Positions 23,249 to 29,604 of a stretch of 64,000 bases of DNA are shown here, in pieces. The position numbers and the translations under genes were made by a program. Positions within the stretch are counted from its first letter, which is position 1; the number at the start of each line of letters is the position of its first letter. Under the pieces are notes generated by a model that was given only the letters and a program-made list of their open reading frames with translations, made no database searches and was not told the origin of the DNA. Location of the stretch: NCBI RefSeq assembly GCF_057098645.1, contig NZ_CM169472.1. The stretch is one strand, 5' to 3'.

Positions 23249-23476
23249 TTACATGCTGTAACCGGGTTTCTTTATCAAAGCCTCCATTTGGGGCGCGATT
23301 TCGGCATCCCAGATAGCTTGCCAAGATTCTGGTTGAATCTGCTGTAGAGCAATGCTTATCGAACTGTCTTTACTGTTCATATGGCGAATAATAACGTCGG
23401 TAATATCTGCAGCAAGTGCTGCTTTTTGTTGTTCGTCCAGTTCACGCGGAAAACATTTAATGTCTATGTGCGGCAT
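23249..23476 (-). CDS. pptA: Tautomerase (4-oxalocrotonate tautomerase family)
   Basis: 75 aa starting MPHIDIK (Pro1 catalytic after Met removal). Confidence 0.8.
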
Positions 23477-23574: not shown

Positions 23575-24102
23575 TTACGAAAGCCTTCTCCCCGCAAGGA
23601 CTGACGCCAGGTAGTTTCTGTCCATGGCTGCTTTTCGCATCTTACGTCTTAACCCAGCCTTGAATACCTTATCATTCGTCAAAATATTAATAGCAATGTG
23701 CCGTATCCCTGAAAATAATTCTGCTGCATTTCCTCTTCTTATTTTGCAGTCGTCTTCATTCATTACCACGTCCAGACGCCAGTGCAGCTTATTCTCCACG
23801 TGCCAGTGGTTTCGGATTGCTGTGGCGAACTTCTCTGCGGTTAAATCAGCAGAACTGATATAATATCTGACCGTCATTTCTGGCTCTTTCTTTTGTTCTG
23901 CTATTATGGACCGAAAGGAGACTGCCACGCATAATTTCTTCAGCCCTTTCCATTCAAACGTGAAATCAATAAGTTCATCAGGAACATCGCAAACAATATG
24001 AAGACGGATTTCTTCTCTGCCGTGACTAAAATGCGAATTATTTAGTACAAAAAAAGCGGCGCACCTTGTTCTTTCCCAGATTCCTAATATGGCAACTTTA
24101 AG
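23575..24102 (-). pseudogene. ISAs1-family (H-repeat-associated) transposase, 3' fragment only
   Basis: Open frame of 175 codons with no start codon; C-terminal region with [22 protein letters not shown] typical of H-repeat ORFs; N-terminal half replaced by AT-rich DNA. Confidence 0.7.
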
Positions 24103-24266
24103 TTATCGCCGTCTATACTTATAGAAATTTCATCAGGGGTGACATAAATAGAATTTTTTTCATCCTCAATTGCCCATAACTGATTAATAAAAAAGTGTTT
24201 TTTATCATCTAATAACAAATCATCACATGTAGTAAAATTATTAATATCAAAAAAAATCATCAGCAC
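24084..24266 (-). CDS. Hypothetical small acidic protein (58-60 aa)
   Basis: ORF only; overlaps the end of the upstream ORF; no clear RBS. Confidence 0.3.
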
Positions 24267-24678
24267 AATTAATTTTTAAATTTAAAAAATAAAGAAAAAT
24301 ATTATTGATTGATTTGAGTGTAAACCACTTGTCATTAACAAATTTATAGCTAGATGATTTTATAAAATAATAATTATCTCCTGGTATAAAGGCATACATA
24401 TCATTTAAGGTTATACTCAACAAAAAACTACGACCTGGTTTAATAGTATTCCAGCGTTCAGGATTCGTATTAATTTCAAAAGGACATGAACCACCTAAGT
24501 AGTCCAACGTGATATTCCCAGAGTTGATCCTGAATGGTTTTTTGCATATCGCATCATATTCATCTCCTTTTCCATCTTTTACTTTCATAGGTAGATAATA
24601 TTTAGAAAAAAAATACGTGGTAGAGCTATTGTTAGTAAAGGTTATGTTAGCAAAAATCCTGTTATTTTTTTTACTCAT
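24247..24678 (-). CDS. Hypothetical protein; frame is open upstream to 24822 without a start (possible disrupted gene)
   Basis: 143-aa ORF from ATG 24678; same frame open for a further 48 codons upstream; an overlapping 38-codon ORF with ATG lies in another frame. Confidence 0.4.
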   Translation of the reverse strand: MSKKNNRIFANITFTNNSSTTYFFSKYYLPMKVKDGKGDEYDAICKKPFRINSGNITLDYLGGSCPFEINTNPERWNTIKPGRSFLLSITLNDMYAFIPGDNYYFIKSSSYKFVNDKWFTLKSINNIFLYFLNLKINCADDFF

Positions 24679-24956
24679 AGCTAATTGAGCATTGACATCC
24701 GCTATATAATTTATATGATTACATTTTTTCTTACACTCATCATAATTTTCGATAGGATAAATTAATGGTCTTCCTTTGATATCTCTCTCAAGCCCAAACC
24801 CGTATTTTTTATTAAAACCATTTCATCCGCAGTCGATTGAAAGGAATAGAAAAATATAATATTTACGATTGTCATTATTATGATTTTTTTATAGCTTGCA
24901 GCATTAATATATTTCTCGACTTATTAGTTAATGGAGAAGTGTTTTTTCTAATTCCG

Positions 24957-25184
24957 CTATTTTTTCTTAACTGAATTGCTTAATATTTCATCATTAATCG
25001 AGTCTATCTCACTTTCAATTAATCTTATTTCAAAATATCTTTCTATGTTATATGCATTCTCAAATATTTGATCTTTTTGTTTAGAGATCAGTTTAGTTGC
25101 AATACGGATATGTTCGTCATATGAAACTTCATCCTCTTTGCACGTTGAATATTTATCAGTAGTTGTATAATCCTGTGACCACAT
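24957..25184 (-). CDS. Hypothetical acidic protein (75 aa)
   Basis: ATG preceded by AAAAGGTGGT; net acidic; AT-rich. Confidence 0.5.
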   Translation of the reverse strand: MWSQDYTTTDKYSTCKEDEVSYDEHIRIATKLISKQKDQIFENAYNIERYFEIRLIESEIDSINDEILSNSVKKK

Positions 25185-25266
25185 ACCACCTTTTTATTAT
25201 CCCCATAATACCACTGAATATGAGACATTTCATGACATAAAGTAGTAACATGAGAATCCTTTCCCG

Positions 25267-25716
25267 TTACTGGATTTTTTTGCCATCTCTATACTCAAAT
25301 TTTGCGCCTATGTTAATTATATAGGACATATCCTTACTTGGGCTGACGAATGCTGCAAATTCATTACAACCTGTATAATTTATAAAACTGCTCATTGTTA
25401 AATCATTAGCTATAATCATTAATCTTCTCACGCCATCCATCATAAGAAATCTAGCATTCATGCGCCTACCTGTATTATATCCATATTTTCTTATATTAAC
25501 TTCCTTATTTCCTTTAACACCAAAGATCTTACTGAAATAATATTCCTCCTGTGCTCCCCATCTCAAAAGATCATCTGCTCTTTTTATCAAAACCAACTTT
25601 TGTGCCTTACGAGCCTTATCAATCATTATTTTAAAATGATCAGTTATTTTTTGCTCTTTCACACATTCTTCTGGCTCTGGCTTTGGTTGTCCAGAAGTTT
25701 GATTATTATCGTCCAT
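25267..25716 (-). CDS. Hypothetical basic protein (149 aa from internal ATG)
   Basis: ATG 25716 preceded by GGAAGGA; net basic; no family recognised. Confidence 0.5.
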   Translation of the reverse strand: MDDNNQTSGQPKPEPEECVKEQKITDHFKIMIDKARKAQKLVLIKRADDLLRWGAQEEYYFSKIFGVKGNKEVNIRKYGYNTGRRMNARFLMMDGVRRLMIIANDLTMSSFINYTGCNEFAAFVSPSKDMSYIINIGAKFEYRDGKKIQ

Positions 25717-25903
25717 AGTGTCCTTCCATTGAGAGAAAATCATCATTCGCAAATAGCAACTAAAAAGCAGCATTACTTGACCTTTCCCTGCATAACAATA
25801 TTTATAAAATAATACGTTTTATGATCTCACCTTGGGCTCCCAACAAGATAATTTCAGTTTTAAAGACTTTCACGAAAAAAATATAGAAATACCTCACCAC
25901 CCT

Positions 25904-26194
25904 TCACTTACCAATTAATCTCACAGGAAATCCAACTTCCTTACCACAAATACAATCCCAAGTAACACCTCCCAAAATTTTTGATACTTTAGGCTGCAAT
26001 GGCATTATTGACATTATAAATTTATCAAGTTCTTCGCTATATTTAATTCCCTTTATATTTCTTATTATTGATATTCTAGCAGTAAAGATAGCCGTCTCTC
26101 CATCTACACTAAAAGTGTAATTACAATTTTTTGTAATCTCATCAAATTCAACCGATAACAAATCAATATTATGGTTTGTAAACACTATGCCCAT
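25904..26194 (-). CDS. Hypothetical protein (96 aa), candidate immunity partner of the upstream papain-like domain
   Basis: ATG 26194 overlaps the stop of the upstream ORF by 26 nt. Confidence 0.45.
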   Translation of the reverse strand: MGIVFTNHNIDLLSVEFDEITKNCNYTFSVDGETAIFTARISIIRNIKGIKYSEELDKFIMSIMPLQPKVSKILGGVTWDCICGKEVGFPVRLIGK

Positions 26195-26672
26195 TCCATA
26201 CCTCCTTAAATTCCTGTTCAGTCATCAGATATCGACTCCCTTGATATGGATCATATATTATCACATTCCCAGCATCATCAACACCCTTAACAAGTACCCA
26301 ATGCCCTACTTTACTTCCAGAATCCCATATCATTGCTCCCCATGAACCAGTATTACTGAGGGCATATAAACTAGATTCGCTCACTGCATTCCCTTCCCAG
26401 CCGACATCAAATTTATTAAGCTTGTTTGCCAGCGACGTCATAGATGTTAATTCTGTTCCAATTACATTTTGCGTGACAAAAATATACCTATCCCTAAGCA
26501 ACATTTCCCCACAGGCCGCTCCACAGCCTGTTAAAGTCAATTGCTTTATTACATTTGAATCTAAAACCTCATCAAATACTGTCCAATTGCCACCAGCACC
26601 ACCTTCTAAAACTACCGGCTCTACAAATACTTTCCCAGAGATATTTTCTTCTGGTATTTTTGCGGGTATCCA
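26169..26672 (-). pseudogene. Orphan papain-like (C39-like) cysteine peptidase-fold domain without an ATG/GTG start
   Basis: Frame open 26672-26169; only TTG at 26540; motifs TGCGAACGEML (Cys) and GHWVLVKGVDD...IIYDP (His, Asp) in papain-fold order. Confidence 0.5.
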
Positions 26673-28144
26673 TTACTGGTGGCGTCTTCAAACCGCAGCT
26701 CGTTAAATCCGCTTCCTTTATAGGTTTTTGACCGGATGGTCATCTGCGTCTTCGTTCCCGGCAGGTCGCCCGGCGAACGGTTGTCCTCATGGTAGGTCCG
26801 CCCCATGATTATCGGCTGGTCCGGGTCGCCGTTCAGAAAATCAACAATCACCTCCTGGCCCACCCGCGGTATCGCCAGGTTACCGAACCCCGGCCCCGCC
26901 CACGCCTGCGACACCCGCACCCAGCATGAACTCGCCTCCGTCATCCCGTGATAACGGTCCCAGTGGAACTTCACCCGTACCCGGCCATGCTCGTCGCAGA
27001 AAATCTCTTCTCCCGCAGGCCCGGTGACAATGGCGCTCTGTGGCCCGTCCACCTTCGGTTTGTTTTGCAGCCGTGGACGCCACGTCCGGTCCGCCGGTAT
27101 CACCTCTAACTGATTTCCCAGCGTGGTTCCCTTTCCCTGGCTGCCGTGCAGCGCCTGCGGCTGGCTTCCTGACAGTATGCTCTGTACCACCTGCCATTCA
27201 CGGTTCAGCATCTTCTGCGGATGCCTCGTCAGCGTAAACCGCGTTCCCGGCCACAGCCTCGGCGAATTACTCTGCCCTGTGGCCTTTTCCGCATCACTGC
27301 GCAGGCTGTCCATCTGGTACAGCGTGAAATCCTTGCCGTGCTGCTCGTCCTTGAACCTTCCCGGATAATCAAATATCTCATACTGCGCCAGCTGTCCGTT
27401 CAGGTTCTCACCCTGCTGCTCATACATCCCCGGCCAGTCCGGCACCTTAAACGTGTAATCCTGGCTCTGTACCGACGACGGGCGGACATACGCCTCATAA
27501 CGGAACATACTGACACACTCTGTCTCCGCTCCTGCCGATGTGTCCGGGTTAAACGGAAACTCCCCCGCCTGTGACAGCCCCGCCACATCGTCGCACAGCG
27601 TCAGCTTCTGCTCCGGACTGTCCGCCGCAAACCGCTCAAAGAAGAAAATCCCCTCCTCCGCCCACAGCCGCGCCAGAAACGCCAGGTCGCTCTCACCGTA
27701 CTGGACACAGAACTCCCGCGCCGGATGGTCTTCATAAAACAGCGGAGTCCACTCCGTGACGCCGTTCTCGTTCAGTAACGTGGCCGATACCGTCCGGATA
27801 TCCTGCTGCTGGAAGATACGGAAGTTCTGCCGCAGCCCGCACCGCCATAACGGCGGCTCAATACGCAGGTGATAACGCATCTGCCAGCCATTGTTCTCCT
27901 GCATGCCAAAGCCCGCCACCACGCCGGTAACATAACGCAGCGGGATGACGCCCTGCCAGATGGTCAGCGTCGCCTTCTTCTCCAGCAGCATCCCCGCCGT
28001 CTGCATAAAAGAGTCGCTGGCAACATCCACACTCATCACAAACGGATATGACTGGTTCTGGATTAACCTGAAATTCGCCACTGCAAAGGTGTCCGGCTCC
28101 TGGCCGTCAATCTCCAGCGTAAAGCGCAGACCTTTTAAGGACAT
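26621..28144 (-). CDS. VgrG (T6SS spike) N-terminal gp27/gp5-like portion, truncated at ~490 residues
   Basis: Conserved VgrG blocks incl. SSCWVRVSQAWAGPGFGNLAIPRVGQEVIVDFLNGDPDQPIIMGRTY; C-terminal 20 residues unrelated; GC-rich then abrupt AT-rich junction near 26670. Confidence 0.85.
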   Translation of the reverse strand: MSLKGLRFTLEIDGQEPDTFAVANFRLIQNQSYPFVMSVDVASDSFMQTAGMLLEKKATLTIWQGVIPLRYVTGVVAGFGMQENNGWQMRYHLRIEPPLWRCGLRQNFRIFQQQDIRTVSATLLNENGVTEWTPLFYEDHPAREFCVQYGESDLAFLARLWAEEGIFFFERFAADSPEQKLTLCDDVAGLSQAGEFPFNPDTSAGAETECVSMFRYEAYVRPSSVQSQDYTFKVPDWPGMYEQQGENLNGQLAQYEIFDYPGRFKDEQHGKDFTLYQMDSLRSDAEKATGQSNSPRLWPGTRFTLTRHPQKMLNREWQVVQSILSGSQPQALHGSQGKGTTLGNQLEVIPADRTWRPRLQNKPKVDGPQSAIVTGPAGEEIFCDEHGRVRVKFHWDRYHGMTEASSCWVRVSQAWAGPGFGNLAIPRVGQEVIVDFLNGDPDQPIIMGRTYHEDNRSPGDLPGTKTQMTIRSKTYKGSGFNELRFEDATSNGYPQKYQKKISLGKYL

Positions 28145-28162
28145 AAATACCTCTCAGACATA

Positions 28163-28447
28163 TCAGCCTACATTTACCGTACCGCCACCAATGACCACAC
28201 CACCACAGTCGATGGCATCACCGGTTCTGGCGGCGGGCAGGCCGTCAATAAAGACGGTTGACGAGCCTCTGGCGATTTTACGGGGATGAGGGGGATGCTT
28301 CGGTTTAGCATGCGGCGTCAGCGGATCTCCCTGGCGGGCTGCGGGGAGACCATCGATAAAAACGGTGGATGACCCGGCGGTGATGACGGTCTCGTAATAA
28401 CCGTCGTGCTGGGTGCCTTTGTCGGTGAGTTTGGCTGCTAAAGGCAT
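28163..28447 (-). CDS. PAAR-domain protein (94 aa)
   Basis: Two STVFIDGLPAAR(Q/T)GD PAAR motifs; AGGAGG RBS; 18 bp upstream of vgrG. Confidence 0.8.
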   Translation of the reverse strand: MPLAAKLTDKGTQHDGYYETVITAGSSTVFIDGLPAARQGDPLTPHAKPKHPPHPRKIARGSSTVFIDGLPAARTGDAIDCGGVVIGGGTVNVG

Positions 28448-28986
28448 AATTCCTCCTGTTCAGAATTTCTACAGCAGCAGGTTTCAAAAATCCGGAGAAA
28501 TATTCAACGAAATATTAATCACTTCACCGGATATTCTGATACGTACCTTCACTGGTCTATTTAAGTAATACAAATTGTTGGCGTGAATTAAGTTCCATTT
28601 TGTTCTCCTTAATTATGTAAGGAGTATTTGATCATGTATAAGCAATAAAAACAGCTTCAGGAAATAAGGAATATCGCAATTTTTAAACATAAAATGCGAA
28701 TCGTTCAATACAAAAAAGCAGCGTTGCGTAATCTTTCCCTGATTAAATACGCTACCGCCCTACCCTGATGACATGATCTGCACTGCACTATCATATCGAC
28801 ATGTTTCTCTACATGCGAAAAGATGTTTTATTTTCGGATTGTATTAAATTGATATTTCATATAAAAAACGAAATTACATCAATCATATAAATAGTTGTAC
28901 CAACTTTAATTACTATTCATAGCAAACAAATGAATATCCAGTTAACTACGCCAGTGATTCATTAACATTAACCTCCGGCATTATTG

Positions 28987-29604
28987 TTAAATAATGACAT
29001 TCCTTTTTAATACTTCTTGTAATTTCGGTAACTGACATACAGCATCAGCAATCGCACTGATATTCGTGGCATTATCCTGAAACCATTCATGCCCAGGCCC
29101 CCATGTGCGCATAGTGCAAAGATAACAGTCCACCAGCGTTAGTTGCTCACCAAACGCATAAGGTTCAGCGGTCAATTGTGAATTCAGCCAGATATAAAGC
29201 GATTTACGATATTCAATAACATTCTTCTTTAACTGTTCGGGTGCGTCAGGAGCCCAACGCTCAGGGTAATCGGCGAAAGTGAATGTTGGATAGACATTAG
29301 CAACCAGCCAGACCAATAGCCGTTGAAACTGCTGACGTTCGGCGCGCCCAACCGGTGGCGCAAGGTCCGGGCGACGATCGAGAACCATCAATGCAATCGC
29401 CGCTGTCTCCGTCATAATCTCGTCATTTTCCAGCGCCAGTGTCGGAATCTGACACAACGGGTTCAGGGTTTTCAATAACTCGCGTGAAGTTCCCTCGTGG
29501 TCAAAACCACTGACATCAACGAACTGATAAGGAATATCAGCCAGTGTTAGCATCAGCTCACTGATTGTAGAGCCCCATCCGGGTACGCCATACACCTTAA
29601 TCAT
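28987..29604 (-). CDS. yncG: Glutathione S-transferase-like protein
   Basis: 205 aa; GST fold sequence; synteny. Confidence 0.85.
   Translation of the reverse strand: MIKVYGVPGWGSTISELMLTLADIPYQFVDVSGFDHEGTSRELLKTLNPLCQIPTLALENDEIMTETAAIALMVLDRRPDLAPPVGRAERQQFQRLLVWLVANVYPTFTFADYPERWAPDAPEQLKKNVIEYRKSLYIWLNSQLTAEPYAFGEQLTLVDCYLCTMRTWGPGHEWFQDNATNISAIADAVCQLPKLQEVLKRNVII

Follow-up and report, generated by a model that had tools for sequence, protein, structure and literature searches.

Cpe1 is a papain-like cysteine protease that is delivered by a type VI secretion system (T6SS) and cuts GyrB and ParE at a double-glycine motif. The C362A substitution abolishes its toxicity, and the immunity protein Cpi1 neutralizes it through hydrophobic exosite binding; the complex of its toxin domain (Cpe1tox) with Cpi1, from Escherichia coli ATCC 11775, is Protein Data Bank (PDB) entry 9L5U (Song et al., PLoS Biol 2025, PMC12136450). 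A second known kind of effector comprises spike-linked metallopeptidases with periplasmic immunity, such as VgrG2b/PA0261, M35-PAR, and SARI_02727. Here, we analyzed 64,000 nucleotides (nt) of contig NZ_CM169472.1 from RefSeq assembly GCF_057098645.1 (the whole stretch is called the window), and in it the interval 23575-28986 between pptA and yncG, which holds parts of both kinds: a cpe1 remnant with cpi1 (module 1) and a gene annotated in related loci as peptidase M35 with its partner gene (module 2). We conclude that this interval is very probably a degraded T6SS vgrG island that was built in layers and delivers no toxin, its working parts being the Cpi1 immunity protein and a spare PAAR protein.

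Results

The island genes all lie on the minus strand and are bounded by pptA (23249-23476) and yncG (28987-29604). In window coordinates, the features are the following.

23575-24036, minus strand: ISAs1/H-repeat transposase remnant, C-terminal 153 codons, adjoining pptA (RefSeq pseudogene)
24084-24904, minus strand: pseudogene of a signal-peptide partner, a putative periplasmic immunity protein; indels near 24883, 24804, and 24249
24928-25716, minus strand: pseudogene of an aspzincin (M35-like) T6SS cargo effector
25706-25759, minus strand: relic of the original vgrG end, 17 codons plus stop, reading LLFANDDFLSMEGHYGR and then the stop; in another frame, overlapping the M35-like ATG by 11 nt
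25904-26194, minus strand: intact cpi1, encoding the Cpe1 immunity protein, 96 aa (match to 9l5u_C)
26169-26670, minus strand: cpe1 remnant, residues 314-479, the complete coding sequence of the papain-like toxin domain (match to 9l5u_A)
26670..26671: deletion junction, vgrG codon 491 joined out of frame to cpe1 codon 314 (blastn against locus L002)
26671-28144, minus strand: vgrG pseudogene, first 491 codons (TIGR03361; in RefSeq a pseudogene, incomplete, C-terminus missing)
28163-28447, minus strand: intact gene for a T6SS PAAR tip protein, 94 aa (WP_001127494.1; NF033420)
28448-28986, minus strand: AT-rich intergenic stretch 5′ of PAAR, the likely promoter region of the operon

A sequence-only reading had described the interval as a GC-rich PAAR gene and 5′ part of vgrG followed by AT-rich minus-strand open reading frames (ORFs) and the 3′ end of an ISAs1 transposase, and we recovered every one of these elements in place. 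It had also counted six short ORFs in the AT-rich DNA and could put none of them in a named family. The ORFs are real, but they are not six genes: two are the cpe1 remnant and cpi1, that is, Cpe1tox and Cpi1, whose structure and target are known, and four are fragments of a peptidase M35 gene and its partner, both frameshifted.

A Deletion Between vgrG and cpe1

Strain PapRG-04-4 (L002) carries an intact island with the same flanking genes as the window, in which PAAR, VgrG (660 aa), a DUF2169 accessory protein (348 aa), a 479-aa PAAR-like domain protein, a 96-aa protein, a peptidase M35, a hypothetical protein, and an ISAs1 remnant follow one another. By blastn, the window is collinear with this locus except that L002 5185-7776 (2,592 bp) is missing at window 26670/26671. 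The deletion took the 3′ end of vgrG, the DUF2169 adaptor gene, and cpe1 codons 1-313, and up to the junction the vgrG remnant is collinear with the 660-aa VgrG. An in-frame VgrG-Cpe1 fusion created by the deletion was considered and rejected, since the join is out of frame: past codon 491, the vgrG frame reads 16 out-of-frame codons before it stops, ending at 26621. The two parental sequences have ATG in common at the breakpoint, and the junction reads AATGGATACC, with one G extra; judged from these bases, microhomology-mediated joining alone would not fully explain it. Of 5,426 complete E. coli genomes, 31 matched a 200-bp junction-spanning probe over its full length, and the interval as a whole is 99.9% identical to complete E. 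coli O145:H28 genomes.

The vgrG remnant still matches TIGR03361 (548 bits, model positions 1-483 of 513), keeping 491 codons vs. 660-809 aa in intact relatives. A complete VgrG/TssI spike, with the gp27-gp5 core and the C-terminal beta-helix or effector-binding region, is not encoded in the window. The PAAR protein is complete and belongs to the T6SS PAAR proteins, matching NF033420 over residues 1-94 of 94 (157 bits against a cutoff of 124). These two proteins are 85% (PAAR) and 72% (VgrG) identical to those of a Salmonella PAAR-VgrG-M35-like locus.

An Orphaned Cpi1 Beside a Cpe1 Remnant

By its match to 9L5U, module 1 is the already known Cpe1/Cpi1 pair. The cpe1 remnant, read in the C39 ORF at 26169-26540, is identical to 9l5u_A at 142 of 143 residues, the sole difference being M427I. 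The substituted codon (26326-26328) sits between those of M426 and W428, hydrophobic-surface residues that bind Cpi1 and substrate. In the full-length 479-aa orthologue, a Tox-PAAR-like domain (15-115, E 8e-12) precedes a Peptidase_C39 domain (352-474; Pfam, E about 1e-5, precisely 1.2e-5). The papain-like toxin domain is present in the remnant frame together with Cys362 of the Cys362-His-Asp triad, and the N-terminal PAAR-like (DUF4150) domain, which in Cpe1 shares one intact ORF with it and mounts it on VgrG, is gone with the deleted codons 1-313. Upstream of Cys362 there is no in-frame ATG or GTG; the only candidate starts are a TTG at residue 357, which has no recognizable Shine-Dalgarno sequence, and an ATG at residue 369. 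The C39 ORF annotated by RefSeq (WP_000926703.1, 111 aa, 26169-26504) begins at Met369 and thus lacks the catalytic cysteine, so that, from its predicted start, the protease-domain product as drawn cannot be catalytic. Because the only ATG start lies 3′ of the Cys362 codon, the cpe1 remnant is probably silent or inactive.

The cpi1 product is identical to 9l5u_C at 96 of 96 residues, including the contact residues I47, M61, M64, and K72. The gene is preceded by a strong Shine-Dalgarno sequence (AAGGAGG), and its start overlaps the final 26 nt of the cpe1 remnant, the same arrangement as in the intact operon. We found cpi1 in 332 genomes, in 331 of them at 99% identity or more; these divide exactly into 301 in which the vgrG-DUF2169-cpe1 segment is intact and 31 that have the deletion junction. 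The sequence-only reading had suggested that such islands collect displaced toxin tips and immunity genes, which the Cpe1 remnant and Cpi1 bear out. In UTI89 and similar strains, the cassette lies near 0.27 Mb, which we take to be the region of the aspV-linked T6SS cluster. Both gene names, cpe1 and cpi1, already appear in recent RefSeq annotations, and the words orphan, truncated, and pseudogene are absent from the main text of the Cpe1 paper (PMC12136450).

Frameshifts in Both Genes of Module 2

The four remaining ORFs are frameshift fragments of two genes, 25267-25773 and 24957-25184 in the one and 24247-24678 and 24084-24266 in the other, to which a 46-aa ORF (25088-25228) and a 37-aa ORF (24762-24875), probably outside the earlier count of six, add further pieces. 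Locus L003 shares its deletion with the window, yet its 263-aa peptidase M35 (HEMSH motif) and its 263-aa downstream protein are both intact; the deletion is therefore older than at least some of the frameshifts. Set against L003, the peptidase gene of the window has lost 1 nt near each of 25274, 25190, and 24959, which breaks the frame into ORFs of 168, 46, and 75 aa and cuts the HEMSH motif off from the N-terminal part, and the partner gene has lost 1 nt near 24804 and gained 1 nt near 24249. All five frameshifting indels are within or beside short runs of A, T, or G, and four of the five are common to the independent O145 assembly L001, the exception being the one near 25190. That deletion is absent from L001, L002, and L003 and arose either very recently, by mutation, or as an assembly error in the source of the window. 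Taken over the whole window, no complete spike, adaptor gene, deliverable toxin, or intact second module is present.

One more difference, of 1 nt in an A run near 24883 (24876-24904; L002 3388-3417), is common to the window and L003 and removes a longer start of the partner gene. The length of this run decides between a start at MLQAIKK, which gives a canonical signal peptide with a basic n-region (the L002-type 273-aa protein), and a start at MTIVN (window and L003). Because of the shorter MTIVN start, even the intact L003 partner may be poorly exported.

The vgrG relic ahead of the M35-like gene, LLFANDDFLSMEGHYGR plus stop, matches the C-terminus LLFANNNYNTSEGHYGR plus stop of a Salmonella VgrG that precedes a 62%-identical effector with the same 11-nt overlap. 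Module 2 was found at a coverage of at least 80% in 508 complete E. coli genomes, and in 28 of 31 rows sampled from these, the match stops at window 25761 with a VgrG annotated beneath it. In uropathogenic E. coli (UPEC) 536 (L022), the genes between yncG and yddH are PAAR, VgrG (801 aa), the M35-like gene, fragments of the partner, and an ISAs1 remnant. The vgrG relic, the breakpoint at 25761, and this canonical island in UPEC 536 together suggest that the cpe1 cassette was recombined into the island and displaced the M35 module. We also observed that in UPEC 536 (L022 5070-6667), the M35-like gene is annotated as intact (253 aa) and directly follows the full VgrG, with the partner split into ORFs of 77 and 155 aa; a seemingly intact effector beside a broken immunity gene was unexpected.

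The Family of Module 2

The effector family is small. A word-indexed search returned 29 proteins, with E. coli, Salmonella, Buttiauxella, Franconibacter, and Rahnella as the named sources, and an exhaustive profile search returned 255 clusters at E ≤ 1e-3, of which 25 were at E ≤ 1e-30. In the alignment, CHExSH is invariant, as is Asp D183 within a GGMxTxD consensus, and 9 of the 10 positions of NAYNIERYFE are invariant. The intact allele and the family thus have the HExxH motif, the downstream Asp ligand, and the fold of an aspzincin (M35) peptidase: the family profile aligned to the catalytic region of AsaP1 (PDB 2X3A, residues 255-337) at E 2e-6, and the AlphaFold model of the effector is confident, with a predicted local distance difference test (pLDDT) score of 88. 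On a single sequence, Pfam Aspzincin_M35 matched weakly (E 0.0025). NCBIfam gave no matches for the AT-rich ORFs, Pfam gave only weak matches for module 2, and single-sequence PDB searches with the M35-like protein and its partner returned nothing meaningful.

Genomic context ties the family to T6SS spikes. In seven of seven homologue families examined, from E. coli T6SS clusters (with ClpV or TssB/C as neighbors), Salmonella, Buttiauxella, Franconibacter, and metagenomes, the effector gene abuts or overlaps the 3′ end of vgrG, with an overlap of 8-14 nt where a full vgrG is on the contig. Each of the seven is followed by a protein of 206-308 aa homologous to the partner in the window (E 1e-19 to 1e-77). 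These partners have a signal peptide-like N-terminus where the called ORF is complete, and they share two invariant cysteines. The VgrGs that precede the M35-like effector (L004, L007, L010, and L018-L021) all share the C-terminal motif FxFTDDDG(I/L)PY..T.YIA.F.DG...G.TD..G.T, whether they have T6SS_Vgr and DUF2345 Pfam domains or Gp5_C-type repeats, and this motif may be an effector-loading adaptor. Among more distant homologues, the catalytic core is also fused to carriers, a full VgrG in P0110, an Rhs core in P0130, and PAAR in P0078, with weaker PAAR matches in four more proteins; such fusions to carriers are the signature of a polymorphic T6SS toxin domain. From this linkage to vgrG and partner and from the carrier fusions, we infer that module 2 comprises a cargo effector acting in the periplasm and a periplasmic immunity protein, with toxicity and neutralization both predicted. 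One E. coli T6SS cluster (L021, 2498-10741) carries a tandem unit, in the order ClpV, VgrG, M35-like (246 aa), partner (227 aa), VgrG, M35-like (262 aa), and partner (308 aa).

Module 2 belongs to the known kind of spike-linked metallopeptidase effectors with periplasmic immunity introduced above. We found no paper that tests this family and none that links aspzincins to type VI secretion. A specific relationship to VgrG2b (C-terminal domain, PDB 6H56) was rejected, as the fold searches did not return VgrG2b. A search for M35-PAR covered three 50-kb segments of the E. coli PAR chromosome, whose position was a guess based on an old locus-tag number; it met no T6SS genes and did not locate the effector.

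A Possible Split Zymogen

In the AsaP1 zymogen of Aeromonas salmonicida, an N-terminal beta-sandwich propeptide blocks the C-terminal aspzincin domain. According to a review (PMC11985622), peptidyl-Lys peptidases of the M35 family are synthesized with a propeptide of ∼15 kDa, which holds the proenzyme in an inactive state. The predicted fold of the partner best matched the AsaP1 proenzyme, in a region that is probably the inhibitory propeptide (model pLDDT 67 overall, about 80-90 in the beta-sandwich core), and the model of the effector matched the same AsaP1 chain through its catalytic domain. These structural models make it possible, although we would not favor it, that module 2 is a decayed copy of an effector/immunity family, found in enterobacterial genomes and a few metagenome contigs, that would act like an aspzincin zymogen split into two genes. 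An M35-type catalytic domain would be carried on the conserved ∼60-residue VgrG C-terminal segment, and an exported counterpart of the AsaP1-type propeptide would block the active-site cleft in trans.

Searched against the PDB, the partner-family profile gave only noise, with no sequence-level similarity to any chain. The partner hidden Markov model had no matches in longer M35-like proteins either, because the N-terminal extensions of these are PAAR, PAAR-like, VgrG, or Rhs delivery domains, not propeptides. If the split-zymogen reading is true, the window supplies only a pseudogenized example of it and a relic of the VgrG adaptor end; if the immunity protein is a detached prodomain, this would be a simple, testable origin for an immunity protein.

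Flanks and Apparatus Genes

GC content is 0.58-0.65 over vgrG (26700-28050) and 0.22-0.41 over 24000-26550. At the pptA end, the ISAs1 remnant is 96% identical to residues 226-378 of K-12 YdcC, and its 117-aa ORF matched NF033564 with 103 bits at model positions 241-314 of 314; the transposase is not full-length. At the other end, upstream of PAAR, weak sigma-70-like matches lie on the minus strand at 28865-28838, 28819-28790, and 28640-28612, consensus matches only and no evidence of function. In K-12 MG1655 (record 1526247-1533285), the same yncG-pptA slot holds an RhsE pseudogene, ydcD, yncI, and a full ISAs1 copy, ydcC; no homologues of the K-12 genes yncH or ydcD were found in the window. 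The comparison indicates that a single chromosomal slot is occupied by a toxin island of either the Rhs or the VgrG type, with an ISAs1 end in common. The sequence-only reading of the interval as a decayed Vgr/PAAR accessory island is thus supported, and the island lies at a hot spot.

That the spike genes are orphaned within the window, as had also been proposed, was upheld. In tblastn searches of the 64 kb with proteins taken from other loci, no TssB, C, E, F, M, A, Hcp, ClpV, TagL, or DUF2169 protein was found. The aspV tRNA site carries a T6SS cluster in many E. coli. In O145 RM9872, the closest complete genome (L023, 241395-244383), the only genes at this site ahead of yafV-ivy-fadE are one annotated as hypothetical, an orphan hcp, and a fragment of a gene. 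This suggests that the apparatus was lost at the aspV site of O145 RM9872, and the orphan hcp fits apparatus loss with relaxed selection on offensive genes.

Discussion

The degraded island would have arisen in four steps. The canonical yncG-pptA island would consist of PAAR, VgrG, the M35-like cargo effector, the periplasmic immunity protein, and the ISAs1 remnant. In a minority lineage, a cassette in which a DUF2169 adaptor gene and the 3′ portion of a different vgrG accompanied cpe1 and cpi1 would have recombined into this island and pushed the M35 module downstream, leaving 17 codons and the stop of the original vgrG. In the lineage of the window (mostly O145:H28), an illegitimate deletion of 2.6 kb would then have brought vgrG codon 491 and cpe1 codon 314 together out of frame, destroying the spike and the adaptor gene and depriving Cpe1 of its PAAR-like delivery domain. 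Finally, the M35-like gene and its partner would have been broken by single-base indels within or beside homopolymer runs. In the present state, PAAR, cpi1, and the remnants of vgrG and cpe1 may still be expressed from the promoter region 5′ of PAAR, and Cpi1 would bind the Cpe1 exosite, shielding GyrB and ParE from Cpe1 injected by other E. coli.

The sequence-only reading expected the AT-rich ORFs to hold an undescribed effector/immunity module, and such a pair, intact and still functional in the strain, would accord with the absence of NCBIfam matches for these ORFs, of a PDB sequence match for the single module 2 protein, and of any paper that we could find on the family. We regard it as nearly untenable: module 1 is Cpe1/Cpi1, at 99-100% identity to the 9L5U chains, five frameshifting indels run across both module 2 genes when they are set against intact alleles, RefSeq annotates nothing but fragments, and no pair of ORFs in the window encodes a complete toxin plus partner. 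The absence of any intact toxin-immunity pair from the window is essentially the outcome by which that reading itself had said it would fall; the second, frameshifted pair belongs to the family for which we found no tests. The frameshifts might be sequencing errors or reversible homopolymer phase variation, leaving effector and immunity gene functional or switchable, as the position of all five at short A, T, or G runs and the lack of the indel near 25190 in L001, L002, and L003 would allow. This too is highly improbable, given that L001 has four of the five, that the interval is 99.9% identical in dozens of O145:H28 genomes assembled independently of one another, and that several simultaneous corrections would be needed for function; even an intact copy would be without its cognate VgrG C-terminal region, of which 17 codons are left.

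A further alternative concerns module 1, where translation of the cpe1 remnant from TTG-357 or another internal start would make it, with cpi1, an addiction pair of a toxin-antitoxin-like kind that stabilizes the island. The coding sequence of residues 314-479 has been kept whole with one substitution, the last 26 nt of the remnant overlap the cpi1 start as in the intact operon, and the pair is conserved in 31 genomes. The start codons speak against it, as no ATG or GTG lies 5′ of Cys362 and the TTG has no Shine-Dalgarno sequence, and a product from residue 357 would be short of ∼20 residues of the crystallized domain, which begins near 337. The annotated 111-aa ORF lacks the catalytic cysteine, and the C362A protein is nontoxic (PMC12136450). 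We consider an addiction pair very unlikely.

Several points weigh against a degraded, nondelivering island with Cpi1 and PAAR as its working parts. Expression of Cpi1, PAAR, and the cpe1 remnant is predicted, and the promoters are consensus matches only. Translation from TTG-357 could, in principle, give a 123-aa product that keeps Cys362. The T6SS status of the host was read only at aspV of the closest complete genome, with its orphan hcp, and the order of events was deduced by comparing a handful of loci rather than from a phylogenetic tree. The frameshifts are within or beside homopolymers, which are prone to assembly errors, and the one near 25190 is absent from three comparators.

For the window, the analysis removes a false lead, as the ORFs are a truncated published toxin, its intact antidote, and two broken genes. 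It documents a natural orphan-immunity state, which bears on how Shiga toxin-producing O145:H28 might resist Cpe1-armed commensal or extraintestinal E. coli. It also exposes a compact three-part module, in which a conserved C-terminal segment of VgrG goes with an aspzincin cargo effector and a propeptide-like partner, and whose allele occurs in ∼500 complete E. coli genomes. The island type and the hot spot were already known, and the wider module 2 family is of more interest than the copy in the window.

Comparison with Known Systems

The RhsE element of K-12 occupies the same yncG-pptA slot and, like the island described here, ends in an H-repeat/ISAs1 copy beside pptA; as in Rhs/vgrG islands, an older module has been displaced downstream of a newer one. 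Unlike in RhsE, the carrier is PAAR plus VgrG rather than an Rhs core, and what was displaced is a whole cargo effector gene, along with a 54-bp relic of its vgrG, rather than an rhs-CT tip.

Module 2 resembles VgrG2b/PA0261 (PMC6899460), M35-PAR of E. coli PAR (PMC10673891), and SARI_02727/02726 of S. arizonae (PMC12992299) in having an HExxH zinc peptidase delivered by a VgrG spike, a downstream signal-peptide immunity protein, an inferred periplasmic action, and both VgrG-fused and separate-gene forms. Its family profile aligns to the catalytic region of AsaP1 (PDB 2X3A), but whereas AsaP1 is one protein, module 2 has two separate genes, and its beta-sandwich protein has its own signal peptide.

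The gene order of L002 is exactly that of the VgrG-DUF2169-PAAR-like (DUF4150) loading modules (e.g., PMC11883445; TseV of Salmonella bongori, PMC9635880). In contrast, a single 2,592-bp deletion has stripped the window of its DUF2169 gene, of the C-terminal part of VgrG, and of the PAAR-like domain. The residue numbers given for Cpe1-Cpi1 of ATCC 11775 (C362, L387, M390, A408, M426, W428, and V434) fit the L002 orthologue exactly. The cpe1 of the window differs from that system in lacking the PAAR-like/DUF4150 delivery domain with its linker and a proper start codon and in carrying M427I, and its cpi1 differs in being an orphan immunity gene, the only intact member of the pair.

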